Positions 33,546 to 48,450 of a stretch of 64,000 nt of DNA are shown piece after piece (position 1 is the first letter of the stretch; the number at the start of each line of letters is the position of its first letter). The position numbers and the translations under genes are program-made. A model generated the notes under the pieces. The model did not search any database. It was not told where the DNA came from and saw only the letters and a program-made list of their open reading frames with translations. Source of the DNA: Gemmatimonadota bacterium (lineage in GTDB: Bacteria; Gemmatimonadota; Gemmatimonadetes; Gemmatimonadales; Gemmatimonadaceae); NCBI GenBank assembly GCA_031416115.1, contig JANOTB010000133.1:3205-67204 (forward strand). The letters are read 5' to 3'.

Positions 33546-34439
33546 ATGGCAAGTATCGCGTACCTCGGCACCGGCCTCCTCGGCGCCGCCTTCGTGGAGG
33601 CCGCATGCAAGCGTGGCGATTCCGTCACGGTCTGGAATCGCACCACGGCCAAGGCCCGCGCGCTGCAGCTGTTCGGCGCGCACGTCGCTGGCTCACCGGA
33701 GATGGCCGTGCGCGGCGCCGAGCGTGTGCACCTGGTGTTGCAGGACGACGCGTCGGTGGAAGAGGTCGTACGGGCGTTGCGCCCCGGCCTCGCGCCCGGG
33801 GCGATCATCGTGGACCACACGACGACGCTCCCCATGCTCACGGCCGCGCGTGCGACGCGGCTCAACGCCGAGGGAGTCCACTACCTGCACTGCCCGGTGT
33901 TCATCGGACCCGCAGCGGCGCGCGAGGCGCAGGGGATCATCATGGCCTGTGGCCCGCGAGCACTTTTCGAGCAGGTGAAGCCCGCACTGGAGCTACAGGC
34001 GCTGCGCGTTGAGTACCTGGGAGAGCGCAACGACCTCGCGGCGGTGATGAAGCTCTGCGGCAATGCGTACATCATCGGCAGTGGCGGGCTGCTCGCGGAC
34101 GTCTTCTCGATCGCCGCGAACTCCGCGGTGAAGCCGGGTGAAGCGCTCTCGCTGCTCAACTTCTTCTTCGGCGCGGGGATCATCGCCGGGCGCGGCACGA
34201 AGATGGCGGCGGGTGACTACACCGCGAGCTTCGAGCTCACCATGGCACGCAAGGACGTGCGACTGATGATCGAGACCGCGGGAGCGTTGCCGCTGGCGCT
34301 GTTGCCCGGGCTGGCGGCGCGCATGGATGCGCTGATCGCCGAGGGGAACGGAGCGCTCGACATGGGCGTGATGGCGCGGGATGCGGTCGCGCGGGATGCG
34401 GTCGCGCGGGACCCGCACGGCGGGACCCGCGCCGAGTAG
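33546..34439 (+). CDS. NAD(P)-dependent beta-hydroxyacid dehydrogenase-like oxidoreductase
   Basis: ATG 33546 places the Rossmann motif IAYLGTGLLGAAF at the N-terminus. MKLCGNAYI and ARKDVRL motifs of the HIBADH/6PGDH-NAD family are present. Confidence 0.75.
   Translation: MASIAYLGTGLLGAAFVEAACKRGDSVTVWNRTTAKARALQLFGAHVAGSPEMAVRGAERVHLVLQDDASVEEVVRALRPGLAPGAIIVDHTTTLPMLTAARATRLNAEGVHYLHCPVFIGPAAAREAQGIIMACGPRALFEQVKPALELQALRVEYLGERNDLAAVMKLCGNAYIIGSGGLLADVFSIAANSAVKPGEALSLLNFFFGAGIIAGRGTKMAAGDYTASFELTMARKDVRLMIETAGALPLALLPGLAARMDALIAEGNGALDMGVMARDAVARDAVARDPHGGTRAE
34374..34411 (+). repeat. in-frame 15-nt tandem repeat gcgcgggatgcggtc x2.5 (ARDAV ARDAV ARD)
   Basis: Read directly from the sequence, at the 3' end of the oxidoreductase gene. 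Confidence 0.9.
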
Positions 34440-34526
34440 GGCGCCCCACCTGCGGAGTGCTCGCGGAGAGGATATCATACGGCTGTTGCGGCACATCCTC
34501 GGCCGCACTCCTGTTCCGGAGCTCGA

Positions 34527-36842
34527 CTGCCTCACCAGCTCGACAAACTGCGTTCGGCCCTCGGCGCCTCCTACCGGCTCGAAGATCTTGTCGGCTCCGG
34601 AGGCATGGCGTCGGTCTATCGCGCGATCGACCTCCGTCATGATCGCGTGGTGGCGATCAAGGTGCTGCGCCCCGAACTCGCGAGCAGCGTCAGCCTTGAG
34701 CGATTCAACGCCGAGGTGCGACTCACGGCGAGCCTGCAGCACCCGCACATCCTCCCGCTGCATGACTCGGGAGGCGCGGGTGATCTGCTCTTCTACGTCA
34801 TGCCGTTCGTCGAAGGCGCTCGGACGTTGCGTGGGCGCATCGAGGCGAGTGGTCCCATGCCGATCGATGAAGCGATCGAGGTGGCCGTCGTCGTCGGCCG
34901 CGCGCTCGACTACGCGCACAAGCGCGGCGTGATCCATCGCGACATCAAGCCGGAGAACATCCTGATGTCGAACGGTGTGCCGATCGTCGCCGACTTCGGC
35001 ATCGCACGGATCGCCACTGCGGACGGCACCCGCGTGACGGGTACCGGGATATCGGTCGGCACGCCCTCGTACATGAGTCCGGAGCAGGCGGAAGGCGACC
35101 CAGGGGTGGACGCGCGCACGGACATCTACGCGCTGGGCGCGATGCTCTTCGAGATGATCGCCGGTGAAGCGCCGTTCGGGAGTGGCACCTCGGTGGGGAT
35201 ACTCAAACGACTCTTCACCGAACCCGCACCGCCGCTCGCCTCGCGACGGAGCGACGTACCGCCCAGCGTGGCGGCCGCCGTCGCGCGGGCGCTCGAGAAG
35301 CAGAAGTCGTTGCGCTTTGCGACGGCCGCGGAGTTCGTGCTCGCCTTGCGCGTCGGTCTTCGCACCGACGCCCCCGAGACAACCGGAACGCCGGGTAGCA
35401 CGAGCGGGCGTGTTGGCGCTACGGCCGCCGTCGCAGACGAGCGGTCGGTCGCGGTGCTGCCGCTGGTGAACGTGGGCAACGATCCCGAGCACGACTACTT
35501 CTGCGACGGGATGACCGACGAGTTGATCACCACGCTCTCGCGCCTGCGCGGCGTGCGCGTGGCATCGCGAACGTCGGTCTTCTCGTTCAAGGGACGCGGC
35601 GCCACGGTCGAGGACATCGGCCGCGCGCTCAACGTCGCCTATGTGCTCGAAGGCAGCGTGCGCCACGCCGGCGCGCGGGTCCGTATCAGTGCGCAGCTGA
35701 TCGAGATCCGCACCCAACACCAACGCTGGGCCGAGCGGTTCGACCGCAACCTCGACGACGTGTTCGCGCTGCAGGACGAGCTCGCCCTCACGATCGCCGA
35801 CGCCTTGTCGGTGCGCCTCTCGACCGCCGGCGGCGACGAGATCACCGGCGTGCGGCGCGGCACCGAGAACCTTCCCGCCTACGAGCTGGTGCTCAAGGGG
35901 CGGTACTTCTGGAATCAGCGAGCGCTCGACAAGGCGATGGGGTGCTTCCAGGAGGCGGTGCGTCTCGACTCCGAATTCGCACAGGCGTGGGCCGGACTCT
36001 CGGACGGCTTCTCGTTCCTCAGTTACTACGGCGCGCTCCCACCGCAGGTGGCTTTCGATCGCGGGCGGGCGGCCGCCGAACGCGCGGTCGCTGCCGACGC
36101 GCAGCTGCCGGAGGCGCAGTACGCGCGGGGACTGTTCGAGTTGCTCCTCGGACACGACATGGAGCTGTCTGGCCGCGCGCTGCGACACGCGATAGAACTG
36201 GGGCCGCGTCATGGTGGCTCACACGCGACGCTCTGCCAGTGGCTCGCGTTCACCGGCGACGTCAGCACCTCACACCGCGAGGCGGAAACGGCCCTGCACC
36301 TCGAGCCGCTGTCACCACTGGTCGCGGCAACGGTGGGCTGGGCCGCCGTGCTGAGCCGCGAGCCGGATCGCGCCGAGCGCTTCGTGCGACGGGGACTGGA
36401 ACTCGATGCGAACGCGCTGCCCTGCCTCTGGACGCTCGGCGGTGCGCACTTGGAGCGCGGCAACGTCGCCGAGGCGCTCGACTGGTTCGGCCGGGCCGTC
36501 GCGAGGTCCGGACGCTTGCCGTACATGGTCGCGCTGCACGCGCACGCGGCGGCGGTGGCGGGAGACGACGCGACCGCGCGCGCCGCGCTGCTCGAGATCA
36601 CCACGCGCGCTGACGGGCCGCGACCGGGGCTTGCGGCGTGGATCCATCTCGGACTCGGAGAGCTCGAGCAAGCGATCCCCCTGCTCTCTCAGGCGCTTGC
36701 GGAACACGACCCACACGCGCTGACGCCGCTCGCCATGCTGCATGCCGGCCGCGCAGCGGTCGCCGACGCGCGCTACGCCGACGCGCTCACGCGTGCGGGG
36801 CTCGGCGAGCTCTACCGCGCGCGCACAGCGCTGACCTCGTAG
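34527..36842 (+). CDS. Ser/Thr protein kinase with periplasmic-type TolB-like module and TPR tail
   Basis: HRDIKPENIL, DFGIA and GTPSYMSPEQ motifs. The ORF track starts at ATG 34605, inside the glycine loop (GSGGMASVY). The conserved N-terminus LDKLRSALGASYRLEDLVGSGG is encoded upstream. The only upstream start-like codons are CTG 34527 and 34548. Confidence 0.8.
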   Translation: MPHQLDKLRSALGASYRLEDLVGSGGMASVYRAIDLRHDRVVAIKVLRPELASSVSLERFNAEVRLTASLQHPHILPLHDSGGAGDLLFYVMPFVEGARTLRGRIEASGPMPIDEAIEVAVVVGRALDYAHKRGVIHRDIKPENILMSNGVPIVADFGIARIATADGTRVTGTGISVGTPSYMSPEQAEGDPGVDARTDIYALGAMLFEMIAGEAPFGSGTSVGILKRLFTEPAPPLASRRSDVPPSVAAAVARALEKQKSLRFATAAEFVLALRVGLRTDAPETTGTPGSTSGRVGATAAVADERSVAVLPLVNVGNDPEHDYFCDGMTDELITTLSRLRGVRVASRTSVFSFKGRGATVEDIGRALNVAYVLEGSVRHAGARVRISAQLIEIRTQHQRWAERFDRNLDDVFALQDELALTIADALSVRLSTAGGDEITGVRRGTENLPAYELVLKGRYFWNQRALDKAMGCFQEAVRLDSEFAQAWAGLSDGFSFLSYYGALPPQVAFDRGRAAAERAVAADAQLPEAQYARGLFELLLGHDMELSGRALRHAIELGPRHGGSHATLCQWLAFTGDVSTSHREAETALHLEPLSPLVAATVGWAAVLSREPDRAERFVRRGLELDANALPCLWTLGGAHLERGNVAEALDWFGRAVARSGRLPYMVALHAHAAAVAGDDATARAALLEITTRADGPRPGLAAWIHLGLGELEQAIPLLSQALAEHDPHALTPLAMLHAGRAAVADARYADALTRAGLGELYRARTALTS

Positions 36843-36864: not shown

Positions 36865-36916
36865 GCTCAGGCCGCGAGCTCAGGCCTCCCGCTCAGGCCT
36901 CCAGCTCAGGCCTCCA
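36865..36916. repeat. 13-nt tandem repeat gctcaggcctcc(a/c) x4 spanning the stop codon of the 614-aa patatin gene
   Basis: Units start at 36865, 36878, 36891 and 36904, with a degenerate fifth at 36917. Each unit carries tca, which is TGA on the minus strand. Confidence 0.9.
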
Positions 36917-38750
36917 GCTTCGCCATCGGCTGCGTCGGACGTGCGGCCCGCGGCACGAGCGCAACGGGATTCTCGGTGAAGCGAGCCCAATCGGCCTCGG
37001 CGCGCGAGAGCAGTTCCTGCAGATCCGTGCGATGCGCCCCGCTTTTTTCCCTCAGCCGTCGACGGAGAAAGACGATGAGGTTGCGGCACATGCACATCTG
37101 GCCCGTCGCGACGAGCTCCTCGAGCTGATGCGGCTTGTCGTACCAGAAGGCTGTCGGCTGCTTCGCGGCGAGTTCACCGACGGCCTTCATGTTCGGCGAG
37201 ACCGTCGGCGCGTCCATTGGCGGAACGACCGACAGGCTGAAGATCTCGACGCTCAGGAGCTGACGGCGCCAGCCGGGGAATCCATAGAGCAGTGAATAGC
37301 CGAGGATGCGATGCCGCACGAAGAAGATGTCGCTGACGACCGACATGAGTGCGGCGATCCGGATGTGCACGAGCCATGGCAGCTGCGCGATGCGGAGACG
37401 ACGGAGGAAACTCCACGTGCTCGGCGCGGCGCCGGGATCGGCCTCCCGACGACCTTCGGTCTCGAGGATCTGATCGACGGCAGCGAGCACCTCCCTGACC
37501 GTGCGCCGCGTGACGACGAGCGCCACGAAGACGGCGGCCGCGAGCAGGATCGGGACGATGTAGTTGAGCGTCGTGAGCCCAGGCACCTCGTCCATGTGCA
37601 GATTCGTGAGCATCCACTCGTTCTGTTGCATCAACTGAAAGAGGTCGACACCCACGACCAGTGCGGTCGCACCGGTGAGCAGGACGAGGATCCACCACGC
37701 CCACAGCGCCGACGACAGTCGGAGCCCCTTGTCGGGCGGTTGTGCGAGCGTGCGCAGCGGGCCTCCGTCCGTCGGTCCGGCGGCGTAGCCCGCGCGGAAG
37801 ATCGGATCGGCCTCACTGACCGCGTCCGAGATGATCACAACGCCCGGCGGGTCCTTGGGCACCTTTCCCGCCGCGATCTGCTGAAAGAGCAGATCGAACT
37901 CACCCTCGAATCGTTGCGACTCGCTGATCCCCCTGAACACCTCCGACTCCGCAGCCAGACCCGGATCGGGAGCACTGTCACCGTCCTCCCATCGAATGCG
38001 CGTCGCGGCCTGCATCATGGCCTCGAGGCCCTGATTGTCGTAGAGGCCGCCATCCATGAGCGGGACCGCATCGACTCCCTTCGTCCGGAATCCGTCGCGC
38101 AGCGCCTCGAAGTCCCGCACGCCCTCGGCGCCCTCCCAGACGAAGTCCTCGGGAAAGAAGAATGGCTCCATGCCTCCCGGCAGGCAGGAGGACGAGGCCA
38201 TCACGTCAGCGAGCCGAGCATGCCGCAACCGTTCGGGATCGATCGGCGACTGTCCGTTCCCTGCCGGCGCGTTCAGCTGGAACCGGAACCCGAGTCCGGA
38301 ACGGAAGTCGGTCGCGTTGATGATCACTTCCTCCAGATGACCGACGGGTTTCCATCCGCCATTGGGCTGCCGCTTGAGGAACTCTCCGAACTTGAAGTCC
38401 TCGAAGAAGTGCGTGTTGTATGCCTCCGCCAGCGACGAGATCACGGTGCGTCGTCCCGCGTGCCCTCGTGGCGGGCGATTGGCGAAGTTGTCGAGGACCC
38501 ACTCCGCCATCCGTCCACGGCGCAGCTTGTCGAGCATCCAGTTGCTGTACTGCTCGAAGCTCTGCCCCTTGGCCTGAGACATCGCGTAGGTGCTCGTCAC
38601 GAAGCCGCCGCCCGACGCACCGGAGATCACGGCGACGTCCTGCAGCAGTCCCATGCGATCGAGATAGCTCAATACGCCCAGGTGATAGCCGGCGGCGCGC
38701 GTGCCGCCGCCTGAGAGTCCGAGCGAGATGCGGCCGAATGGGCGTGTCAT
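36906..38750 (-). CDS. patatin-like phospholipase with C-terminal transmembrane domain
   Basis: Gly loop LSGGGTRAAG. Nucleophile elbow GASGG (about 38607-38621). Catalytic Asp in LMDGGLYDNQG (about 38046-38054). Three or more C-terminal hydrophobic helices. ATGA overlap with the desaturase. Confidence 0.85.
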   Translation of the reverse strand: MTRPFGRISLGLSGGGTRAAGYHLGVLSYLDRMGLLQDVAVISGASGGGFVTSTYAMSQAKGQSFEQYSNWMLDKLRRGRMAEWVLDNFANRPPRGHAGRRTVISSLAEAYNTHFFEDFKFGEFLKRQPNGGWKPVGHLEEVIINATDFRSGLGFRFQLNAPAGNGQSPIDPERLRHARLADVMASSSCLPGGMEPFFFPEDFVWEGAEGVRDFEALRDGFRTKGVDAVPLMDGGLYDNQGLEAMMQAATRIRWEDGDSAPDPGLAAESEVFRGISESQRFEGEFDLLFQQIAAGKVPKDPPGVVIISDAVSEADPIFRAGYAAGPTDGGPLRTLAQPPDKGLRLSSALWAWWILVLLTGATALVVGVDLFQLMQQNEWMLTNLHMDEVPGLTTLNYIVPILLAAAVFVALVVTRRTVREVLAAVDQILETEGRREADPGAAPSTWSFLRRLRIAQLPWLVHIRIAALMSVVSDIFFVRHRILGYSLLYGFPGWRRQLLSVEIFSLSVVPPMDAPTVSPNMKAVGELAAKQPTAFWYDKPHQLEELVATGQMCMCRNLIVFLRRRLREKSGAHRTDLQELLSRAEADWARFTENPVALVPRAARPTQPMAKLEA

Positions 38751-39628
38751 GAGGTAGCCTCGGGGTGATGCAGCGGGTCAGTGTGGAGCAACGGTTGCGG
38801 CCGGCGTAGCGCCTCGGGCACCTCGTGCACGTCCCAGACGAGCCCGAGCGCCGCGAGCAGTTTGATCGCCACGTAGTTCATGTCGACCTGCCACCACTGG
38901 AACCCGGCGCGCGCGGCCGTCGGGTACCGGTGATGATTGTTGTGCCAGCCCTCGCCCCAGGTGATGAGCGCCACGAGCACGTTGTTGCGCGATCCCTCCT
39001 TGGTGTCAAAGGGACGAGCGCCCCAACGGTGGCAGGCATAGTTCACCGCCGACGTCAGATGCAAGGCCGTGACCAGCGCCAGCGCGAAGCCGATCGCCAT
39101 GCGCGGGACTCCGCCCCAGAGGAAGTAGAGGCCGGCCACCGCGGCACCCGGCACCCAGTAGAACCGGTGCAACCAGCGCAACTCGGCATGGCGCATGAGA
39201 TCGGGACAGGCCGCGGTCACCTGGGCATCAGTGAGATGATCGTCGGCGAGACTCCAGATCCAGCACGAGAACCAGCCGTCGTTGGGCGAGTGCGGATCGC
39301 CTTCGGTGTCGGAGAAGCGGTGGTGGATGCGATGCTTGCCCGCAAAGCCGATCGGATCGGTGAAGGCGAGACAGCTCCCCACCGCGAGCACCAACTGTCC
39401 GGCGCGGCTGGTCCGGAACGCACGATGCGCGAAGTAGCGATGCAGTCCGCTCGCGACGAAGAACGCGATGATCAGGTGCGTGACGACGAAGGTCCACCAG
39501 TCGGCCGCGGTGGTGCCGGCGATGACGGCGGCGAGTGGGAGCAGATGGAGCGCGAGCAGGAACACGATCACCCGGGCAGTCTGCCACCAGGGTTGCACCG
39601 AGACCCGCGGACGCGGCGTGAGCGGCAT
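38747..39628 (-). CDS. membrane acyl-CoA/acyl-lipid Delta9-type fatty acid desaturase
   Basis: Three His boxes: HRYFAHRAF, HRIHHRFSD and GEGWHNNHHRYP. Confidence 0.9.
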   Translation of the reverse strand: MPLTPRPRVSVQPWWQTARVIVFLLALHLLPLAAVIAGTTAADWWTFVVTHLIIAFFVASGLHRYFAHRAFRTSRAGQLVLAVGSCLAFTDPIGFAGKHRIHHRFSDTEGDPHSPNDGWFSCWIWSLADDHLTDAQVTAACPDLMRHAELRWLHRFYWVPGAAVAGLYFLWGGVPRMAIGFALALVTALHLTSAVNYACHRWGARPFDTKEGSRNNVLVALITWGEGWHNNHHRYPTAARAGFQWWQVDMNYVAIKLLAALGLVWDVHEVPEALRRPQPLLHTDPLHHPEATS

Positions 39629-41166
39629 CAGGCCTCCGCGGGAACGGCGGGAGTGCGGCGCGACCTGAGGAGATCATCCGCGATCGTCGGATTCAACGTG
39701 CCGTCGGCTAACGTGACCATGGTCGGCCGGAACCAGCCGGCGTACTGCGGAGCCACGGGGTGCCGCGGCGTATAGACCGGATCGACACGATCGGTGCCGC
39801 CGATGTGCGTGCGGGGCGCGCGGGACTGGAACAGGTAGCGCGGGTTGGAGAGCCCTTGTGGAGACATGATGCTGCCTATGGTCAGCGCGGACGACAGATG
39901 CACATGCGGCTCGAGCGCGTCGAGATAGTGCCAGTGGAAGCGTGCCTGATGCGCGAGGAAGCGTCCCTTGCGACCCACGAGATTCTTGGTGGTCCGCAGG
40001 AAGGTCGCCGCCGTCTCCTCGCCGTCGAGCGCACGGAGGTTCAGCGTGGAGCCCTCGAGGTCGCGCACTTTCGTACTGGGAAGGATCAACCCGCGCCCGT
40101 GCCGGTCGGCGAAGAACGGCGTGCCCGGGAATGGCGTGGCGACGAAGATGAAGTTGGGCGCCGGGATCGTGTGGTCGTCCGCGATCGTGTCGAGCTCGCG
40201 CTCCATGTCGGCGACCCGACGTTCGGTGGGATCGAACACCAGGCCGTACTGGAAGAGGATCCCTGCCTCGAGGCAGCGGCGGATGAGCGCCTGCTGCGAC
40301 TCGCGGACGTTCTGCGGCTTGTTGATGCTGCGCAGCCACGCGGTGTCGAACGACTCCACGCCGATCAGCAGCGAGATGCAGCCCGACTCCTTCGCGCGGC
40401 GGATGTTCTCCGCGTCCCAGAGGAAGGCGTCGGTGACGAAACCCGCCCAGAACTTGAAGAGCCCGCGTTCGCGTGCGCGCTTGAGCACGTCGAGTCGCGC
40501 GGCGAAGGCATCGCGCCCCGCCCCTGCGAACTGATTGTCGGCGATGTGCAGCAGCACGCGCGGGCCCATCGCTTCGAGGTCGCGCATGAACATCGCGGCG
40601 TCGGTGCCCTTCCACGGGAGCGAATCGGCAGTGAGCGTGCAGAAACTGCATCGGAAGTTGCAGTTGCGACTCGACTCGGCGTAGCCGATCCAGCGGCCCA
40701 TCCAGGTCGCGAGGTCGTAGCGCGGCACCGGGTCCTCGGCGACGTACTGTTCACCGAAGGCCTCGCGGATGACCTCGCGGATCTCCTCGACGTCGCCGCG
40801 GCAGGCGTAGTCGAACTTCGTCGCCGCGTGCGCTGGGAGCAGCCGGACCGCAAGTCCGCCGGCGATCGTGACGACGGACGGATCGTGCGTCTTGAAATAC
40901 GCGCTCAGGTGAAGGAACCGATCGAACGCCGCGGTGAGCCCGCAGAACACGACGACTTCAGGCCACTGCAGAAGCTCCGGCGCGAAGATCTCGAGGTGGC
41001 CGTTCGCGACCTCGTTGTAGAGACGGATCTCCCACTGCTCGCGCGCGAAGTGACCCGCGAGATGCACCGGGGCCAAGGGCATGGGCATCTCGTTGGGTAA
41101 CTGCATGGGCACCCGAGTCTCGGGCCAGTAGCAGTTCACGATCAGCACGCGCTTGCGATGCGCCAT
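39628..41166 (-). CDS. B12-binding-domain-like radical SAM enzyme (class B type)
   Basis: N-terminal Rossmann-like VLIVNCYWPE...VVVFCGLTAA...VTIAGGLAV. The CNFRCSFC (CxxxCxxC) cluster is at 40639-40662. The stop shares one base with the desaturase ATG. Confidence 0.8.
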   Translation of the reverse strand: MAHRKRVLIVNCYWPETRVPMQLPNEMPMPLAPVHLAGHFAREQWEIRLYNEVANGHLEIFAPELLQWPEVVVFCGLTAAFDRFLHLSAYFKTHDPSVVTIAGGLAVRLLPAHAATKFDYACRGDVEEIREVIREAFGEQYVAEDPVPRYDLATWMGRWIGYAESSRNCNFRCSFCTLTADSLPWKGTDAAMFMRDLEAMGPRVLLHIADNQFAGAGRDAFAARLDVLKRARERGLFKFWAGFVTDAFLWDAENIRRAKESGCISLLIGVESFDTAWLRSINKPQNVRESQQALIRRCLEAGILFQYGLVFDPTERRVADMERELDTIADDHTIPAPNFIFVATPFPGTPFFADRHGRGLILPSTKVRDLEGSTLNLRALDGEETAATFLRTTKNLVGRKGRFLAHQARFHWHYLDALEPHVHLSSALTIGSIMSPQGLSNPRYLFQSRAPRTHIGGTDRVDPVYTPRHPVAPQYAGWFRPTMVTLADGTLNPTIADDLLRSRRTPAVPAEA

Positions 41167-41196
41167 CAGGACGGCTCCAGGGTGAGGAGCGTGAAG

Positions 41197-44100
41197 CTAG
41201 GGAGGACCGGTCGTGACGGATAGAGTCGCGAGGCGCGCGATCCAGGCCTCGAACTCCGCGAAGGAGAGCGCCTCGCCGCCAGGCACCGAGCGGGAGGTCT
41301 CGAGCGCGCCCTCGGCAATGTGCTGACCGAGCGCACGGTAGGCTTCGAACTGGTCCTCGTCAAAGGCCTGGTCCGCAGTCGACTGATGCGGGAAGTCGGG
41401 ATAGCGATGCCGATACTCGCGAATGACCTCACGCTCGTCGCCGGTGAAGGACGACTTGAGGTAGAGCAGGTAGCCGGTCTCGGTCGCCCCTGCCCCATCG
41501 CGGGGCGGGTAGGTGATCGTGCCGACGGTCCAGTGCGCTGCGCTCACCTGGCCAGCGTCGCGCTCCTCGGTCGAGGCGCGGAGCCGCAACGCGTCGAGGT
41601 CGAGGTCGATACCGATGCCCAAGTCGATGCTCGCATAGCGCATGAGTCGCGCGAGACCGGCGAAGTGCAGCATGGGATCGGCCTCACCGTCGCCGATGAT
41701 GATGTACTTGCAACGGCGACGGAGCAGTTCGATCCCGGCGAGGTTCTCAATGTGGCCCCCGTCGGAGAGATTCACCCAGTCGTGCGTCTCGTCGAGCCTA
41801 CTGAGCGCCTCGCGCAGCAGCGCGGCCGGGCGCACGCGCCAGCGGAAGCGCGAGCCCTGCGTGTCGCGACGACGGATCAGGTTGCTACCGACCGCGACTA
41901 TTTCGCCCTGCTTGACGTTCAGCGCATCGAACCTCGTGTACCGGTACTCTCGGGGCGCCACTCCTGCCTGCCCCGTCACACGCACGATCGACGCGCCCTC
42001 GGCCGAGGTCTCGACGTCGACCACTCCCGCGACCTCGCTCCGGCCCCGCATCGTTCGCGGTCGCAGCAATGAGCGGCCCGCCACGATCGTTTCCCCGTGC
42101 GTCACTCCGAGTGCGGCACGCTCCGTGAATCGGTACGTGCGCGGCGGCTCGCCGGCCCCTTGCGGCGTCACGGTCACGACCTGCTCGCCGAGTCGCCCGT
42201 CGGCCAACGCCGGCGTGCGCTCGATCGACACCGTTCCGGTGCTCTCGCTGCGGAGCGCCTCGCGGGCCCGCATCAAGGTGCTGATGCTCGATCCAACGTA
42301 CCCGCCTCCCGAGACCGTCGACATGTAGTCGCAGTGATCGAACACGCCGGCCTGGTGCAACGCCTGCGAGATCCCGAGATTGAGCGACGCGGAGCGGATG
42401 CCACCGCCCGAGAACGCGATGCCGACGAGTCCGTGCGCGACGGTCGGGGTCCGTTGCGCATCGGGGGCGGCCCCCAGTGCCCGCACGGGCCCGTCGGGAT
42501 ACACCTGGCTTCGCCGGCTCTCGATCTCGTGCAGTTCGTCGGCGAACACCTCGTCGAACGAGAACCCTTCGAGCCGTCGCGGGTTCGGCACCCAGAACCC
42601 CAGCCGCACATTGATGAGCGTCATGAAGGCGACGAGGAGCGGCGACGTGCCGCGACCCATGTTCGGTGCCGCGGCGGCGGCCGAGATCGCCATCGCCGTC
42701 GCAACGTCCAACTGCGGGAAGACCTGCTCCAACGTTTCGCTGCGGCAGTAGCCGGTGCGGTGTCCGCCCACATACCGCGGCGTGAAACAGAAGAAGTCAC
42801 TCTGTCGATCACGGATCCCGATGTCGGTGCTGGCCTGGAGGTTGAGCGCGACGTTGATGATGTGATAGGGCGCCGTTGAGCGCGCCTCGTAGCGGCAGAT
42901 CTCGTCGAGGGCGACGTCGTCCTCGATGCCGATGTCGCCCTTCGTGTCCCTCCCCACGAGGAAGGCCGACGCGAGCCGATCGCGGTAGAGTCCGTGGATC
43001 GAAGTGAGATTGACGTCGACCGTGATCCAACAGCCGAGCCAGATGACGACGATCAGCAGGACGATGAAGATCACCTTGGGCGGCATGAGCTGCGTGGTGA
43101 CCCGACGTTTCACCTTGGCGAGAGCGACCTGTTCGAGCCGTCCGTGGACCCCGAACATGAGTTTCGCCAAGAGCTCATCGGTGCGGAGTGGATCGTTCCG
43201 CCAGTACAGGGCCACTGCCACCATCGCCATCTCGTCAGCGCCCAACAGATAGAAAGGGTTGGTCGCGAACGCGTCCATCACGACGTCGTACTGCTTGTGC
43301 ACATCCGGTCCCGCTGAGGCGTCAGCAAGAGCGCGCTCGATCAACTGCACGCGCGCGAGCGCCGCGAGCGCTTGCGTGTCGTTGCGAAGCGCCTTGGCCG
43401 CGACGAGGTATCGGAGCCGCAGTGCGTCGGGCCAGAGCGCCGGTGCCCGGTCTCGAATGGCGCGCCGCTCGGCGTCCGTGCGATCCTCGTAGGGTTCGAT
43501 CTCCCCTCCCACGGCCGGCGGGAACGGCACAGCCGCGAGCGAGTCCAGTGGCACGCGTTCGAGCGCGAGAAAGGACTTCCACCGTGCGGAGCTCGCCCAG
43601 TCCTGCTCGATCGAATCGGCAAGCGCGCGAAGACGTCCCTCGGGCTGCTCGTAGGACTCCCCGAACGCCAGGCCCCGCAGGTAGTCGGCGTCGATCTCCG
43701 CGACGGCGTGCCCGGCGAGCTGCAGTGCGGCCGCACGGCCGATCTCGTCGTCGGTGGGCTCAGCGTTGCGAGTCGGTGGACCAGCGGCGCTCGCCACGTC
43801 CGCGCCGAACGCGGCGTTGGTGCGATGGAATAGCGCGAGTCGATGCGACGTGGACTCTTCCGGGATCTCACGCACGGCGGCGAGACGGGTCGACAGGGTC
43901 GCGAGGACGCGGGCCGTCGCGGCCGACGCGGCCGACGTGCTGTCCGGACCGACCGGGAAGCGCGGCACGGCCGCGCGGAGCAATCGGGCGCGTTCGGAGC
44001 GCGTGGGAGGCGCCAGTCCGCGCGCGAGCGCCGATGGGAAGACGAGGTCGAGGAGTTCCTGATGCGTCAGCAGCGTGGCGAGCTCGCGCGTTCCGGCGAG

Positions 44101-45744
44101 CTGCGCTCTCTTCGCGGTGCCCGGGACGTCGTCAAACTTCTTCTCCACCGCGCGCAGCAGGGCCTCCTCATCAAGCAGCACCGCGATCCCGGCGTCGTCC
44201 GACACGGTGAGCGCCCACCGCATCGCATCGCGGGCGCGCTCACGCACGCTGTCGGCGACCAATCGTCCGTAGCGCGAGCGGACCGCGAGCCGAGGGTCGC
44301 GCTTGACGTCGGGAGTCTCTGACGGGGCCTTGCGAAGCTCCAACTCGAGGTAGTGATCGAGCAGCGCGTCCGAGAGGTGCGTCGCCACTCCGTCGTGCCC
44401 TCCCACTTGACCGGCGATCTCATCGATCACGCCGACCCGCGCCAAACGGACGAGTTCCTCGCGCAACGGGTCGAGTTCAGTGGTCGGACGTCGAGAGAGC
44501 CGATACGCGAGCGACGCCAGCGGCATCTGCGACTCCAGATAGCTCGCCGCGCGCTTGGCATCGGTCTCCGCCTCGCGCAGCGGCGCGATCACGTCATACC
44601 AGCCACCTCGCATGCTGTCGGCTCTCGCCGCACGGATGCTGTCCTGCCGAAGCTCGTCCAGCCGCAGTGCGCCGCCAGCTTGATACTGTGCGTTCGCGAA
44701 CGCGCCAGCGTCCAAGAGCGTGACCACTTCGGGCGAGAGATCCTTTCGGTTCTCGATCCGCTCGAACTGCGCAGCGGTCTCCTTCATCATCCCGAGCGTC
44801 TGCTCGAGCTCCTTGTTGCCTGCGCCCGCCTCATCCATCGCGATCGAGCCCAGCCACACGACCCCCACGGCCACTCCGACGCTCACCACAACGAGCCCCG
44901 AGACCGCGGCGACCTCACGCGGCAGGAACGCACGACGTCGCACGCCGAGCACGATCGTGATGACGAGTCCGATCACGCCGGCGACCGGCACGGCCAATGG
45001 ACTGATCATCCAGAGGAACGACGGGGGAAGACCGTAGAGCAGATAGTCCGTCACCGCGACCACGACGAGCACCGGGACCAGCAGCCCGAGCACGCCGACC
45101 AGGACCATCGCGACCTGCTTGCGGACACCGCTCAGGAGCGCGAGGAGCTGACTCGCTCCGCTCAGCGCCGCGAGTCCGATCGACGCCATGGCCAGGGTGC
45201 CCGGCCAGGTCACCGACCCGAGCTGCAGGCGATCATGGAAGGACTCGAGCAGCCACGGCAGCGACTCGAGCGCGAAGATGAGGCCTGCCGCGAGCAGCAG
45301 CGCGCCGAAGGACCGTTCGTACCGGTCGCGCTGACCGACCGTGCTCTCACTGCCGGTCTCCACACTCCTGTTGTGCAGTACGACGCGCAGGATCGGCACC
45401 GACAGGGCGAACAGGAGCACCCAGACGAACGCGAAGCCGAGCACACCGAGCGTCAGATAGAACGGGTGCGAGCGCAGCCAGTGGTGGGAGTAGGCGAGAC
45501 CGATCGCCAGCGCGAGGAGATACGGAACGAAGATCAGGAAGTTGATGACCATCCCGCGTAGCAGAACGCCGGCGGCGCGGAGGTAGTCGAGCAACCCCCG
45601 CGCCGTCATGTAGTTCGAATGATTGCGGATCCACGTGAGGTACGGGGACTCCTCGGGCCCGCGACTCACGGGGAACGGGTACCGGCCCGCCTCGCTGCGC
45701 TGCGCCGTCGTGCCCGCGTCCTGCGCTCGGTCCCGCTCGATCAC
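41197..45744 (-). CDS. 1515-aa polytopic membrane protein with C-terminal rearranged patatin-like phospholipase domain
   Basis: GTG start with a GTGA overlap to the upstream gene. About 7 N-terminal TM helices and a ~600-aa Ala/Leu/Arg-rich helical region. Patatin motifs: SGGGIRS (42391-42411), TVSGG (42304-42318), SDGGHIENLAG (Asp about 41761-41763) and the FPHQSTADQAFDEDQFEAYR tail. Confidence 0.8.
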   Translation of the reverse strand: MIERDRAQDAGTTAQRSEAGRYPFPVSRGPEESPYLTWIRNHSNYMTARGLLDYLRAAGVLLRGMVINFLIFVPYLLALAIGLAYSHHWLRSHPFYLTLGVLGFAFVWVLLFALSVPILRVVLHNRSVETGSESTVGQRDRYERSFGALLLAAGLIFALESLPWLLESFHDRLQLGSVTWPGTLAMASIGLAALSGASQLLALLSGVRKQVAMVLVGVLGLLVPVLVVVAVTDYLLYGLPPSFLWMISPLAVPVAGVIGLVITIVLGVRRRAFLPREVAAVSGLVVVSVGVAVGVVWLGSIAMDEAGAGNKELEQTLGMMKETAAQFERIENRKDLSPEVVTLLDAGAFANAQYQAGGALRLDELRQDSIRAARADSMRGGWYDVIAPLREAETDAKRAASYLESQMPLASLAYRLSRRPTTELDPLREELVRLARVGVIDEIAGQVGGHDGVATHLSDALLDHYLELELRKAPSETPDVKRDPRLAVRSRYGRLVADSVRERARDAMRWALTVSDDAGIAVLLDEEALLRAVEKKFDDVPGTAKRAQLAGTRELATLLTHQELLDLVFPSALARGLAPPTRSERARLLRAAVPRFPVGPDSTSAASAATARVLATLSTRLAAVREIPEESTSHRLALFHRTNAAFGADVASAAGPPTRNAEPTDDEIGRAAALQLAGHAVAEIDADYLRGLAFGESYEQPEGRLRALADSIEQDWASSARWKSFLALERVPLDSLAAVPFPPAVGGEIEPYEDRTDAERRAIRDRAPALWPDALRLRYLVAAKALRNDTQALAALARVQLIERALADASAGPDVHKQYDVVMDAFATNPFYLLGADEMAMVAVALYWRNDPLRTDELLAKLMFGVHGRLEQVALAKVKRRVTTQLMPPKVIFIVLLIVVIWLGCWITVDVNLTSIHGLYRDRLASAFLVGRDTKGDIGIEDDVALDEICRYEARSTAPYHIINVALNLQASTDIGIRDRQSDFFCFTPRYVGGHRTGYCRSETLEQVFPQLDVATAMAISAAAAAPNMGRGTSPLLVAFMTLINVRLGFWVPNPRRLEGFSFDEVFADELHEIESRRSQVYPDGPVRALGAAPDAQRTPTVAHGLVGIAFSGGGIRSASLNLGISQALHQAGVFDHCDYMSTVSGGGYVGSSISTLMRAREALRSESTGTVSIERTPALADGRLGEQVVTVTPQGAGEPPRTYRFTERAALGVTHGETIVAGRSLLRPRTMRGRSEVAGVVDVETSAEGASIVRVTGQAGVAPREYRYTRFDALNVKQGEIVAVGSNLIRRRDTQGSRFRWRVRPAALLREALSRLDETHDWVNLSDGGHIENLAGIELLRRRCKYIIIGDGEADPMLHFAGLARLMRYASIDLGIGIDLDLDALRLRASTEERDAGQVSAAHWTVGTITYPPRDGAGATETGYLLYLKSSFTGDEREVIREYRHRYPDFPHQSTADQAFDEDQFEAYRALGQHIAEGALETSRSVPGGEALSFAEFEAWIARLATLSVTTGPP

Positions 45745-46307
45745 ACGCCGCTGGTCCCGCGCGCAGGCGCACTCTTGGCTTGCCGGACGGTGTTCCTCGT
45801 GCGGACCGCGGTCCGCTCGAGCAGGGTGCGCGTGCGGGGGTGGTCGGACTGCATCTCGACGCCGACTCCCCGACTCGCACGGATGAGCATCGGGACCGCG
45901 TGCGTCGATTCCGTTCCGCCCGCATCACTGACACCCATGCCGAGCGCTCCGACAATGACCTCCTCGAGCGTTGTTTCCGCCTCCTTCATCTCGGCCTCCA
46001 GATCCTGCAGCGAGATATCGGTCTCGGCACCGGTGTCGCCGTCGTCGCCGAAGGCATCGAGGATCAACCCTGCGAGCGTTTCGAGCTCGACATCGTCATC
46101 CTCCACCTCCTCCAGGACGTCATTGAGTTCATCCCGGAGGTCGCGCATGAGCCGAGCGTCGTCATACGTGTCGAGGTCGGACCGTACGACACTCTCGTCC
46201 GCGACCGGATCACGCGTGATGGTCGCGCGCACATCGGATCGACCGAACGCGAGCGCGGCCGCCGAGAGCGCGACCACCAGACCGACACTGCGCACCTTGC
46301 GTTGCAC
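45741..46307 (-). CDS. exported, strongly acidic hypothetical protein (first gene of the operon)
   Basis: GTG start with signal peptide VQRKVRSVGLVVALSAAALAFG. It has a D/E-rich core (EEVEDDDVELETL, DDGDTGAETD). I recognise no family. Confidence 0.55.
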   Translation of the reverse strand: MQRKVRSVGLVVALSAAALAFGRSDVRATITRDPVADESVVRSDLDTYDDARLMRDLRDELNDVLEEVEDDDVELETLAGLILDAFGDDGDTGAETDISLQDLEAEMKEAETTLEEVIVGALGMGVSDAGGTESTHAVPMLIRASRGVGVEMQSDHPRTRTLLERTAVRTRNTVRQAKSAPARGTSGV

Positions 46308-46484
46308 GACGGCACTCCGTGGACAAAGGGGGCGCTCGAGGCGCTGAGTGCGCTATCTTGCCACCGGCCCGGGCACCGCGCTAGTGCGCCGCGCCGGACT
46401 GATCGTGAAACGGCGTCGACCCGTCTTGCGAATCTCGTTGGCAGCTCCTATCATCGCGCAGCCAACAACCCCGGAGTGCACCGC

Positions 46485-46907
46485 ATGGAACAGCCCCCGA
46501 AGTGGTACTTGCCGGTCGCCATCGTCGCCCTGCTCTGGAACCTGCTCGGCTGTGCCGCCTACCTCGCCGACGTGATGCTCACCCCAGAGGACGTCGCCAA
46601 GATGACCGCGGCAGAGCAAGCGATGTACGCCGCGCGCCCCGCCTGGTCGGTCACGGCAACGGCGATCGCGGTCTGGGCCGGCGCGCTTGGCAGCCTCGGC
46701 CTGATCCTGCGCAAGCGCTGGGCGCTGCCGCTGCTCGTCGCGTCGGTGCTGGGGCTCGTCGTGCAGGATGTGTCCATCTTCGCGCTGAGCCCAGCGGAGG
46801 CGAAGCCCGAGACGGCAGCGTACGCGATCCAGGGCACGGTACTACTGATCGGTGTGGGTCTGCTGTTGCTCGCGCGAAAGGCCACCGCACAGCGATGGGT
46901 CGCGTAA
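46485..46907 (+). CDS. small 4-TM membrane protein of unknown function
   Basis: ATG 46485 gives MEQPPKWYLPVAIVALLWNLLGCAAYL. There are four hydrophobic segments. The upstream part of ORF 45780-46907 is antisense to the operon and was rejected. Confidence 0.6.
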   Translation: MEQPPKWYLPVAIVALLWNLLGCAAYLADVMLTPEDVAKMTAAEQAMYAARPAWSVTATAIAVWAGALGSLGLILRKRWALPLLVASVLGLVVQDVSIFALSPAEAKPETAAYAIQGTVLLIGVGLLLLARKATAQRWVA

Positions 46908-46908
46908 C

Positions 46909-48450
46909 ATGCGCCCACGCCTGCTCCTCCTCCTCCTCGCGCTGCCGGTAGTCGTCAGCGCGCAGCGTCCCGCACCAGCGACCGCGAACGCCACCGCACC
47001 GACCGTCCCCCGCGCGATCCGCGAGATCCGCCAAGCCGACCTCCGTCGCGATCTCTTCGCCATGGCCTCACCGGCCATGCGGGGACGTGAAGGCGGCACG
47101 CTCGACGAGATGAAAGCCTCGGTCTGGGTCGCCGAGCAGTACGCGCGCCTTGGCTTGGAGCCCGCGGGAGATGACGGCACCTGGTTCCAATGGTTCAACA
47201 TCACGCGCACGCGCGTGGCGGTGTCAGCGAGCCGCGCGACGATCGCCGGCCAGGGAGTCGCGCTCTTCGAGGAGATCATCCCGCTGGGGGTTGCGCCCGT
47301 CGAAGCCGCGGGAACGGTCCTCTGGCTCTCCGATCCGGCCGACACGACGATCGACATACGTGGACGCATCGTCGCGACCATGCTGCGCGCACCGGCACCG
47401 GGGACGATCCGCCAGTACAGCTACCCCGCCTCGGCACGCTATGCGGCGGCGGCGATCACCGGCACACTCGCGCGGCTCACGCGCCGCGGCGCGGCGGCGG
47501 TGCTGCTCGTGGCCGACTCGACGGTGGACATGGACTTCTACGCGCTGGCCCTCACACGGGCGCGCGGCGACTACGACGTGGACAACGCGACGCCACGGAG
47601 CGCAGGGGGGTCCAGTCGCGTGGCACCGGTCCCCGTGCTCGGCGCCGGGCCGTCTCCCGCGTTCGTACTGCGGGCCTCAGCGGCCGCCCTGCTTCACCTT
47701 GGCCCGGCCGCGACGCTCTCCGTTCGCCTCGAACGGTTCGAAACACCCTCAGTGAACGTCATCGGCAAGTTGCGCGGCTCCGACCCGGTGCTGCGCGACG
47801 AGTACGTGCTCTACAGCTCGCATCAGGACGCCAATGGCGTTCGGTTGCTCGTGCCCGGCGACTCGGTGCTTGCCGGCGCCGACGACAATGCCTCGGTGAG
47901 CGTCGCGCAGTTCGCCGCGGCGCGGGCGTTCGTGGCGCAGAGACCCAAGCGGTCACTGCTCTTCGTGCACCACGGCGCCGAGGAGCGCGGGCTGTTGGGC
48001 TCGCGCTACCACGCGGCGCATCCGCTGGTACCGCTGTCGCAGATCGTGACCGTACTCAATGGCGACATGATCGGCCGCAACCATCCCGACACCGCAGCCC
48101 TGCTCGGCGCACAGCCGCCGCACCGCGTCTCGAGCGAACTCGTGGCGATGGCGCTACGGGCCAACGCCGCGACCGGCCGGTTCGTGATCGACACGCTCTG
48201 GGACCGCCCGACGCACCCTGAGGGATGGTTCTTTCGCAGCGATCACCTACCGTATGCGCGACTGGGGATCCCGGCGCTGATGTACACCACGAACCTACAC
48301 GACGACTACCACACCGCAGGCGACCTCCCCGAGCGGATCGACTACGCCAAGCTCACGCGAATGGCGCAGTGGATGTACCTCACTGGGTGGTATGTGGCCA
48401 ATGCTCCCAGGCGACCGACTGTCGACGCCGGGTTCAAGCTCGAACGTTGA
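46909..48450 (+). CDS. exported M28-family aminopeptidase
   Basis: Signal MRPRLLLLLLALPVVVSAQ. Motifs GADDNASV, HGAEERGLLGS, LNGDMIG and FRSDHLPY. Confidence 0.85.
   Translation: MRPRLLLLLLALPVVVSAQRPAPATANATAPTVPRAIREIRQADLRRDLFAMASPAMRGREGGTLDEMKASVWVAEQYARLGLEPAGDDGTWFQWFNITRTRVAVSASRATIAGQGVALFEEIIPLGVAPVEAAGTVLWLSDPADTTIDIRGRIVATMLRAPAPGTIRQYSYPASARYAAAAITGTLARLTRRGAAAVLLVADSTVDMDFYALALTRARGDYDVDNATPRSAGGSSRVAPVPVLGAGPSPAFVLRASAAALLHLGPAATLSVRLERFETPSVNVIGKLRGSDPVLRDEYVLYSSHQDANGVRLLVPGDSVLAGADDNASVSVAQFAAARAFVAQRPKRSLLFVHHGAEERGLLGSRYHAAHPLVPLSQIVTVLNGDMIGRNHPDTAALLGAQPPHRVSSELVAMALRANAATGRFVIDTLWDRPTHPEGWFFRSDHLPYARLGIPALMYTTNLHDDYHTAGDLPERIDYAKLTRMAQWMYLTGWYVANAPRRPTVDAGFKLER

Follow-up and report, generated by a model that had tools for sequence, protein, structure and literature searches.

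Five genes that lie end to end on one strand of a Gemmatimonadota genome raise the question of whether they form a single pathway, and of what such a set of enzymes would do. They are found in a stretch of 64,000 nt (hereafter, the window) of a Gemmatimonadaceae genome (Gemmatimonadota bacterium, assembly GCA_031416115.1, contig JANOTB010000133.1, positions 3,205 to 67,204 of the forward strand). From upstream to downstream, they encode an acidic protein of 188 amino acids (aa), a 1515-aa membrane protein with a C-terminal lipase domain, a 512-aa radical S-adenosylmethionine (SAM) enzyme, a 293-aa membrane desaturase of the stearoyl-CoA desaturase (SCD) type and a 614-aa patatin-like phospholipase (Table 1). 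An initial annotation had taken them for one five-gene operon in which two membrane lipases of mirror-image architecture, a B12-type radical SAM enzyme and a Delta9-type desaturase would tailor the acyl chains of membrane lipids. Comparison with related loci shows that the conserved unit is the radical SAM enzyme together with the SCD-type desaturase, usually accompanied by a membrane patatin and a signalling protein, and that the five-gene operon is a juxtaposition of two modules that is specific to one sublineage. We read the core module as a regulated unit for the tailoring and remodelling of membrane acyl lipids, with a probability of about one half.

Conservation of the radical SAM-desaturase core

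A scan in which each GTDB species was represented by a single genome (185,579 species genomes) found 144 genomes that encode relatives of the radical SAM enzyme, and the best 80 were kept; related loci are designated below by L numbers. Of the 41 loci with a radical SAM identity of at least 45%, 39 had enough sequence to be informative, and in 37 of these tblastn placed the desaturase gene directly downstream in the same orientation; the same pair in four metagenome loci (L081, L082, L085 and L091) brings the total to 41 of 43. The gaps between the two genes run from -1 to about 150 nt, and the adjacency is beyond chance. Two loci are exceptions: L016 has only 1.2 kb of sequence downstream, and in L020 (8489-10051), from a metagenome-assembled genome (MAG) of Acidobacteriota, the desaturase gene is replaced by one for a fusion protein, in which Pfam identifies a FeeM-like N-acyl amino acid synthase and a class V aminotransferase.

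The unit is conserved in at least seven bacterial lineages. The pair is carried by Gemmatimonadota, Acidimicrobiaceae (Actinomycetota), Spirochaetaceae, Methylomirabilota, Myxococcota/Deltaproteobacteria and Gammaproteobacteria, the last including Lysobacterales, Woeseia, Pseudohongiella and Halieaceae, with three cultured Parahaliea species. In these three (P. mediterranea, P. maris and P. aestuarii), a four-gene version of the module is syntenic together with its flanks, and the radical SAM enzyme is 86-88% identical, similar to the neighbouring housekeeping genes, a pattern of slow, vertical evolution. Pairwise identities of the radical SAM enzyme and of the desaturase are indeed correlated (Spearman 0.85, in a set of non-independent pairs that included the FeeM-like open reading frame of L020), which lends weak support since any genes with a common genome history would correlate. 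Conservation in relatives, which would be expected of a five-gene operon, thus holds for the three-gene core and fails for the complete set, present in the window, L001 and L002 only.

The third gene is more variable. A patatin of the 614-aa type adjoins the desaturase in 24 loci, in 19 of them directly after it on the same strand and in five, from Lysobacterales, in convergent orientation; a second, shorter type lies 2.5-3.4 kb away in five further loci, and some patatin is present within about 8 kb in approximately 30 of the 41 loci. Where the patatin is missing, the desaturase is followed by an MMPL transporter (L018, L082), an AMP-binding fusion (L021), a short-chain dehydrogenase/reductase (SDR; L040) or an outer-membrane barrel (L085), and L082 has in addition a divergent CDP-alcohol phosphatidyltransferase gene upstream. 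One Lysobacterales MAG (SS_bin_66) contributes both L019 and L040, that is, two units of a cyclase-STAND protein, a radical SAM enzyme and a desaturase, one with a convergent patatin and the other followed by the SDR.

These third genes bear on the fate of the product. A variant of the lipid-tailoring reading, differing from it in that fate only, holds that a fatty acid freed by the patatin would leave the cell through the MMPL or TonB-type neighbours seen in some loci, and that the TPR kinase or cyclase would detect this diffusible compound, a lipid-derived signal or a secondary metabolite. Such a variant would account for a fatty-acid-releasing hydrolase as the commonest third gene, for the MMPL or barrel protein that takes its place in three loci, for the TPR-sensor signalling protein that is nearly always adjacent and for the rarity of the module, which fits an accessory trait. 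The module has, however, no thioesterase, no polyketide or nonribosomal peptide synthase and no regulator/receptor pair of a known type, and we regard an exported product as possible and not as the expected outcome.

Enzymes of the core

The first enzyme of the core belongs to the radical SAM superfamily (PF04055, 35.7 bits against a cut-off of 29.5) and carries the cluster motif CNFRCSFC at residues 169-176, whose three cysteines (C169, C173 and C176) do not vary among 56 homologues. Among its other cysteines, C263 alone is invariant in this set and C12 and C122 are nearly so; no cysteine motif for an auxiliary cluster was detected in the window protein. A total of 488 homologues were retrieved at E ≤ 1e-5. 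The B12-binding family PF02310 scores 23.9 bits, under its cut-off of 32.1, and the domain is listed for most homologues. An AlphaFold model based on the 56 homologues, with a predicted local distance difference test (pLDDT) of 88.6, comprises an N-terminal Rossmann domain, the radical SAM barrel and, at the C terminus, a helical domain. Its best Foldseek match in the PDB is AprD4 (E 1e-13, TM-score 0.58-0.65), followed by MgmA, OxsB, CysS and TokK, then MiaB; a profile search of the PDB retrieved OxsB alone (E 1e-4), and single-sequence PDB searches gave no match for this enzyme or for either lipase. The label "B12-type" is appropriate for the architecture, with a Rossmann domain predicted by the model, and cobalamin binding is putative, since the equivalent domain of AprD4 is not known to bind any.

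Two identities were rejected for this enzyme, namely HpnP/HpnR by score (HpnR, 20.8 bits against an NCBIfam cut-off of 650) and the glycerol dialkyl glycerol tetraether (GDGT) enzyme Tes/GDGT-MAS by fold (7tol, E 8.6e-4, TM-score 0.27). Scores against HpnJ (22.5 against 577.6) and BchE (23 against 481) were of the same order as that against HpnR.

The desaturase is a member of the SCD/Delta9 family. It matches PF00487 with 62 bits and, in phmmer searches, the SCD1 structures 4zyo (E 9.4e-30) and 4ymk (E 8e-29) over residues 14-273, that is, over its full length; the boxes HRYFAH, HRIHH and HNNHH, together with NYACH, supply all the histidine and asparagine metal ligands of SCD1. The Delta9 assignment is therefore correct at the level of the family and does not extend to the NCBIfam equivalog DesA, for which the score is 72, under the cut-off of 400.

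The 614-aa protein is a patatin (PF01734, 67.9 bits against a cut-off of 27.7) with an intact catalytic dyad and oxyanion motif: GGGTR at 14-18, GASGG at 44-48 with Ser46 as nucleophile, and DGG with Asp233. Hydrophobic helices at 353-371, 395-413 and 455-478 follow the catalytic domain, in agreement with the N-terminal patatin and C-terminal membrane helices initially described.

Signalling partners and the sister clade

The set of genes initially described was incomplete in one respect, since it left out recurrent signalling partners. In the window and in L002-L005, L007, L081 and L091, a Ser/Thr kinase gene with TPR repeats lies convergent after the patatin gene, the other flanks differing where examined. 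The central domain of this kinase (residues 279-430) and TPR repeats are also found near the radical SAM gene in L039, upstream and as a kinase fusion, and without a kinase in L009, L017, L029, L030, L032, L038 and L040. Outside Gemmatimonadota, 18 loci have instead a protein of 1100-1270 aa with a class III cyclase, an AAA_16 (STAND) domain and TPR repeats, in that order, encoded on the same strand and ending 9-165 nt before the radical SAM gene. According to domain-wise BLAST, the kinase-TPR and cyclase-STAND proteins are two distinct classes of partner.

The kinase gene of the window probably begins upstream of the position listed in Table 1. Its homology, including the glycine-rich loop GSGGM, continues for 22 codons or more ahead of the first ATG, GTG or TTG (34605), and no stop codon interrupts the frame (34440-34605, plus strand) before that of the preceding gene is reached at 34439. 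This points to a start at a non-canonical codon or to an error in the sequence.

A sister clade of the radical SAM enzyme was found in Pyrinomonadaceae, Blastocatellia and Chloracidobacterium (L046-L080) and in Candidatus Brocadia (L042). In Pyrinomonadaceae, it is accompanied by a patatin of 303 aa, by an AMP-dependent ligase in convergent orientation and by a kinase-AAA_16 protein (1271 aa); among the loci from subdivision 4 Acidobacteria, the convergent ligase is present in about 30 and the 303-aa patatin in nine. Another member, 40% identical to the window enzyme, is encoded on the chromid of Ensifer adhaerens Casida A (L172; NZ_CP015881.1, 1565071-1584549), where a 1572-aa cyclase-AAA_16-TPR protein, the radical SAM enzyme, a GH25 muramidase and a convergent 492-aa patatin follow one another, without a desaturase. 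The sister enzyme was matched in ten replicons of Ensifer, Sinorhizobium and Microvirga, the locus being examined in Casida A. Ensifer adhaerens could be a genetically tractable host for it. A STAND/TPR signalling protein, a radical SAM enzyme and a patatin thus recur across both clades, and the desaturase is specific to the clade of the window.

This recurrence is what a STAND-controlled system of conflict, defence or programmed death would also display. A TPR-STAND protein would sense an invader, the cyclase or kinase output would activate a membrane-destroying patatin, and the radical SAM enzyme and desaturase would synthesise or alter a toxin or a signal. Patatins are indeed common defence effectors, and cyclase-AAA_16-TPR or kinase-AAA_16 proteins adjoin the radical SAM gene in both clades, Ensifer included, with cyclase domains that match the PycC models of Pycsar (1e-15 to 1e-21). 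The patchy distribution (about 144 of 185,579 species genomes), the two copies in one MAG and the lysozyme gene within the Ensifer locus are of the same tenor. However, neither the Parahaliea patatin nor any of the five proteins of the block had a match in PADLOC-DB v2, whose kinase and cyclase matches reflect generic similarity of catalytic domains. The most conserved components are the radical SAM enzyme and the desaturase, not the sensor or the effector; the radical SAM enzyme evolves as slowly as its housekeeping neighbours, in a context syntenic among three Parahaliea species; and the neighbours are lipid-metabolic or transport genes rather than mobile elements or defence genes. Moreover, we know of no described defence system with an SCD-type desaturase. 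A defence module, which the initial annotation had kept as its less favoured alternative, therefore retains the cyclase/STAND/patatin theme and little else, and we consider it rather unlikely.

The strict one-to-one coupling of the radical SAM enzyme with one partner protein could also be that of a maturase with its client, in which the radical SAM enzyme would modify the desaturase, or else the patatin, post-translationally instead of acting on a lipid. MgmA, which is among the top fold matches, is a protein-modifying cobalamin radical SAM enzyme; like Mmp10, it methylates residues of methyl-coenzyme M reductase. The related radical SAM clade does without a desaturase, however, and L020 has a FeeM-like enzyme in its place; to our knowledge, there is no precedent for SCD-type enzymes needing such a modification. 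Protein maturation appears very unlikely on these grounds, and the acyl chain of a lipid is the substrate that we favour.

The upstream pair is an independent module

The 188-aa and 1515-aa proteins form an independent two-gene module, separate from the radical SAM core. When metagenomes were scanned with the C-terminal region of the 1515-aa protein, at least 564 related stretches were returned, and a set of 83 loci of this lipase family was formed from the best 80 of these and L087-L089. In none of these 83 other loci does a radical SAM gene lie beside the large lipase, and homologues about 50% identical to the 1515-aa protein, which has 25 close relatives, occur in unrelated contexts without a radical SAM gene (L087, L089). 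A small acidic reading frame homologous to the 188-aa protein directly precedes the 1515-aa-type gene in L002, L087, L089, L092, L097 and L106. Upstream of the radical SAM gene, the large protein is found in L001 (a partial contig) and L002 only, that is, in two of the eight other Gemmatimonadota loci readable upstream; it is absent from L003-L005, L007, L081 and L091, and from all radical SAM loci outside Gemmatimonadota, except that L017 has, 4.4 kb upstream, a partial match to its C-terminal part.

Because the pair occurs without the radical SAM gene, and most radical SAM loci lack the pair, the five genes are not one conserved unit. An obligate five-gene pathway requiring both lipases, as initially proposed, would be in line with the tight gene order, the 30-nt gap and the lack of a terminator-like site, and the same order is kept in L002 in spite of 51% identity of the 1515-aa protein. 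Yet none of the 83 other loci of the lipase family has an adjoining radical SAM gene, six of the eight other Gemmatimonadota loci have no large protein, and neither do the loci of other phyla, apart from the partial match in L017. Such a pathway is largely refuted by this distribution and is, in our opinion, highly improbable. Nor are the two lipases of mirror-image architecture a conserved pair.

The 188-aa protein is acidic (38 Asp and Glu against 21 Lys and Arg), with a hydrophobic segment at residues 4-22 that is predicted from hydropathy to be a signal peptide. The 1515-aa protein has about eight hydrophobic helices at 65-296 and one more at 891-909. Its patatin domain, as called from the sequence, is backed by the motifs GGGIR at 1113, TVSGG with Ser1145 (the first Gly of GxSxG being replaced by Thr) and DGG at 1328, and by a weak cPLA2 match, and falls short of the Pfam threshold (PF01734, 21.6 bits against 27.7, over residues 1109-1162 only). 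An AlphaFold2 model of the C-terminal region (pLDDT 71) matched cPLA2 in Foldseek with a probability of 0.85-0.99, at a TM-score of only about 0.27.

The segments of this domain are permuted. In the usual order, seen in most of the metagenomic relatives (at least 564 in number), the oxyanion motif and GxSxG come first, followed by a membrane insert, a SIHGLYRDRL...ASAAAAPNMG segment and the DGG segment. We compared residues 880-1515 of the window protein (41200-43107, minus strand) with L110, L122, L127, L133 and L139, and its nucleophile segment (1107-1156) sits after the segment at 890-1057, instead of before it as in most family members. The permuted order is that of the window protein and about 25 close relatives. 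In addition, two beta-rich repeats of about 65 aa each are inserted at about 1170-1300, and they may be the source of Foldseek matches to RNA polymerase beta' and to NusG domain 2. Permuted and canonical members were observed in tandem on one metagenome contig (L095, 6921-14151). In L139 (223-3077) and L140 (566-2600), a lipase of canonical order is directly followed by an SCD-like desaturase, 30-33% identical to that of the window, without a radical SAM gene; this is an independent pairing of lipase and desaturase.

Proposed function of the core

From the gene order, catalytic motifs, folds and conserved adjacency, we infer the substrates, the order and type of the reactions, and their regulation as follows. 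The diiron desaturase would oxidise an acyl chain, carried either by a membrane lipid or by an acyl thioester, and the likeliest outcome is a new double bond. Before or after this step, the soluble radical SAM enzyme would modify the same chain by radical chemistry, either C-methylation, if cobalamin is bound, or another reaction initiated by hydrogen abstraction; methylation, dehydration, cyclisation and coupling are equally compatible with the present data. The membrane patatin, whose catalytic domain is predicted to be cytoplasmic, would then cleave the ester, freeing the modified fatty acid or leaving a lysolipid for re-acylation. A TPR signalling partner may couple the module to a stimulus, the kinase playing this part in the window and the cyclase-STAND protein in most other lineages. 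In this sublineage, the upstream pair would be transcriptionally linked to the core, to which it may contribute another lipase activity.

A system that tailors membrane acyl chains, as initially put forward in general terms, is consistent with the translational coupling of the radical SAM enzyme and desaturase, with their co-inheritance across phyla and with the third genes related to lipids. We count as support the neighbouring MMPL transporter, AMP-binding fusion, SDR, CDP-alcohol phosphatidyltransferase and FeeM-like synthase. Several points weigh against it. In the sister clade, at about 40% identity (Pyrinomonadaceae, Ensifer), the STAND protein and the patatin are retained with no adjacent desaturase, so that the substrate of the radical SAM enzyme need not be the product of the desaturase. 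The radical SAM enzyme scores only 20-28 bits against the NCBIfam families of lipid radical SAM enzymes, with cut-offs of 480-650. AprD4, which comes closest in fold, is a dehydratase with a B12-like domain that is not known to bind cobalamin, and methylation is therefore not implied. Kinase-TPR proteins are abundant paralogues in Gemmatimonadota, which makes the adjacency of the kinase weaker evidence, and the combination of STAND, cyclase and patatin resembles conflict systems. Finally, no characterised homologue of the module is known.

A more specific proposal, which we advance as a doubtful guess, is that the pair carries out, in mostly aerobic lineages, a lipid modification without a known enzyme, for example radical C-methylation, cyclisation or C-C coupling at or next to the new double bond, regulated by the cyclase- or kinase-STAND protein. 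Together with the sister clade, the pair could then bear on the origin of branched or bridged acyl lipids, among them iso-diabolic acid and methylations of the branched GDGT (brGDGT) type. Members of the subdivision 4 Acidobacteria are indeed reported to make iso-diabolic acid without Mss, and how aerobic bacteria that lack Mss or Tes make this acid and brGDGT-type methylations is stated to be an open question (PMC13159169).

If lipid tailoring is confirmed, the module would represent a new and phylogenetically broad enzyme pair, in which an SCD-type desaturase is the obligate partner of a radical SAM enzyme bearing a B12-like domain. Its product, a bacterial lipid or a signal derived from one, would be new as well. 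This would make it a candidate family for unassigned lipid methylations and cross-links that are used as environmental proxies. The coupling of cyclase- or kinase-STAND-TPR proteins to a metabolic pair would likewise be an unusual case of STAND signalling on lipid metabolism. Cultured hosts make the module accessible to experiment, with three Parahaliea species for the core and Ensifer adhaerens for the sister clade. Independently of the core, the 1515-aa protein offers a sequence permutation of the patatin/cPLA2 catalytic domain in a large family of membrane-embedded lipases.

Layout of the locus

Table 1. Features of the five-gene block and its immediate surroundings, in window coordinates.
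Feature	Position	Strand	Remark
Ser/Thr kinase with a central domain of ~150 aa and TPR repeats, convergent; likely regulatory partner	34605-36842	+	Pkinase 2.5e-38 and TPR
Patatin-like phospholipase, 614 aa; predicted cytoplasmic N-terminal catalytic domain, C-terminal membrane helices	36906-38750	-	PF01734
SCD-type (stearoyl-CoA/Delta9 family) membrane diiron desaturase, 293 aa	38747-39628	-	One-base overlap with the radical SAM stop codon
Radical SAM enzyme, 512 aa; N-terminal Rossmann (B12-binding-like) domain	39628-41166	-	PF04055, CxxxCxxC, AlphaFold fold
Spacer between the two modules	41167-41196	-	30 nt, TAG to ATG; GGAG 9 nt before the radical SAM ATG
Polytopic membrane protein, 1515 aa; long helical region, C-terminal cPLA2/patatin-like domain with permuted segments	41197-45744	-	Motifs, model
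Acidic protein, 188 aa; N-terminal hydrophobic (signal-like) segment	45741-46307	-	Partner of the 1515-aa protein
Divergent intergenic region, presumed promoter of the minus-strand block	46308-46485	.	Upstream of the 188-aa gene

The five reading frames, all on the minus strand, their order and their junctions are exactly as first placed (Table 1). In the list of open reading frames, the 188-aa and 1515-aa genes have GTG starts. These two genes overlap by GTGA (45741-45744), as read from the sequence; beyond the 30-nt spacer, the radical SAM and desaturase genes share one base in TGATG (39628), and the desaturase and patatin genes overlap by ATGA (38747-38750). A scan for promoters and terminators, in which counts were near the shuffle expectation, found no terminator-like site between the five genes, whose junctions, overlapping or short, are thus operon-like. 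The G+C content is even along the region (0.65-0.72). The domain assignments of the initial annotation hold, two of them more weakly than first stated: neither the B12-like domain nor the patatin domain of the 1515-aa protein reaches its Pfam threshold.

The block is bounded on one side by the convergent kinase-TPR gene and on the other by divergent plus-strand genes, a small membrane-protein reading frame from about 46486 and then an M28 peptidase gene. The sequence GGAG stands 7 nt before the GTG of the 188-aa gene at 46307, and in the intergenic region the promoter scan, with counts near the shuffle expectation, gave a promoter-like match on the plus strand only. The hydrophobic reading frame at 46486-46907 (plus strand, about 140 aa, MEQPPKWYLPVAIVALLWNLLG...) diverges from the 188-aa gene and ends just before the M28 peptidase, in which a signal-like sequence begins at Met20, near 46909. 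The outer flanks of the window (M28 peptidase, NAD-binding protein and TonB-dependent receptor) are not common to L002-L006, and L007 has a weak M28 match. Searches of Rfam at gathering thresholds found no cobalamin riboswitch, and no other match, in the window, L002, L017 and L033. No NCBIfam family scored above its cut-off for any of the five proteins.

Comparison with known systems

The radical SAM enzyme shares its three-part architecture with AprD4 (PDB 6fd2), a radical SAM 1,2-diol dehydratase whose substrate is an aminoglycoside; this best structural match is only 16% identical to it and lies in an unrelated gene context. The cobalamin-dependent (class B) radical SAM enzymes that act on lipids, namely the hopanoid methylases HpnP/HpnR and the pair GrsA/GrsB, likewise have a Rossmann B12-like domain before the radical SAM core and a lipid-metabolic gene context, and in both cases a soluble enzyme presumably acts on a hydrophobic chain; the window enzyme differs in scoring far below the cut-offs of HpnR, HpnJ and BchE and in having no hopanoid or isoprenoid genes nearby. 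We know of no report of a strict pairing of HpnP/HpnR or GrsA/GrsB with an SCD-type desaturase, and literature searches found none either. GrsA and GrsB are GDGT ring synthases (bioRxiv 10.1101/2023.10.20.563219). Mss and Tes/GDGT-MAS, radical SAM enzymes of tail-to-tail coupling in the synthesis of membrane-spanning lipids (PMC13159169, PMC8941075), perform radical chemistry at unactivated acyl or alkyl carbons, as the initial annotation had envisaged here. The match to Tes/GDGT-MAS is confined to the radical SAM core, and the window enzyme lacks the combination of fold and auxiliary cluster by which that family is recognised. Mss, set apart from the window enzyme by description rather than by sequence, has so far been found in anaerobes only, and its expression in Escherichia coli worked anaerobically only (PMC13159169).

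The desaturase resembles SCD1 and the bacterial Delta9 desaturases DesC and DesA in its full-length homology, in all its metal ligands and, judging from hydropathy, in its pattern of membrane helices; it differs in the pairing of its gene with a radical SAM gene and in its low DesA score (72 against 400). Both lipases share the Ser-Asp dyad and the GGGxR oxyanion motif with ExoU, CapV and cPLA2, the last also matched by the model of the 1515-aa C-terminal region. Unlike these enzymes, both are predicted to be integral membrane proteins, and the 1515-aa protein is permuted with beta-rich inserts; neither has a CapV-type match in PADLOC. In many relatives, as in Pycsar, CBASS and Avs systems, a phospholipase is encoded in one neighbourhood with a class III cyclase and a STAND NTPase that carries TPR repeats. 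However, there is no match to PADLOC at the level of a system, the invariant genes are metabolic, synteny is stable and evolution is slow.

Our literature searches found no description of the radical SAM/desaturase/patatin/cyclase-STAND gene set, which Kaur et al. (2020; PMC7159879) do not cover, nor of the family of membrane-embedded lipases of the 1515-aa type (at least 564 metagenome stretches). The statement that no characterised pathway or defence system has this composition is consistent with our searches of the literature, PADLOC and NCBIfam. Compared with these systems, the locus is composed of known enzyme superfamilies in an undescribed and widely conserved combination.

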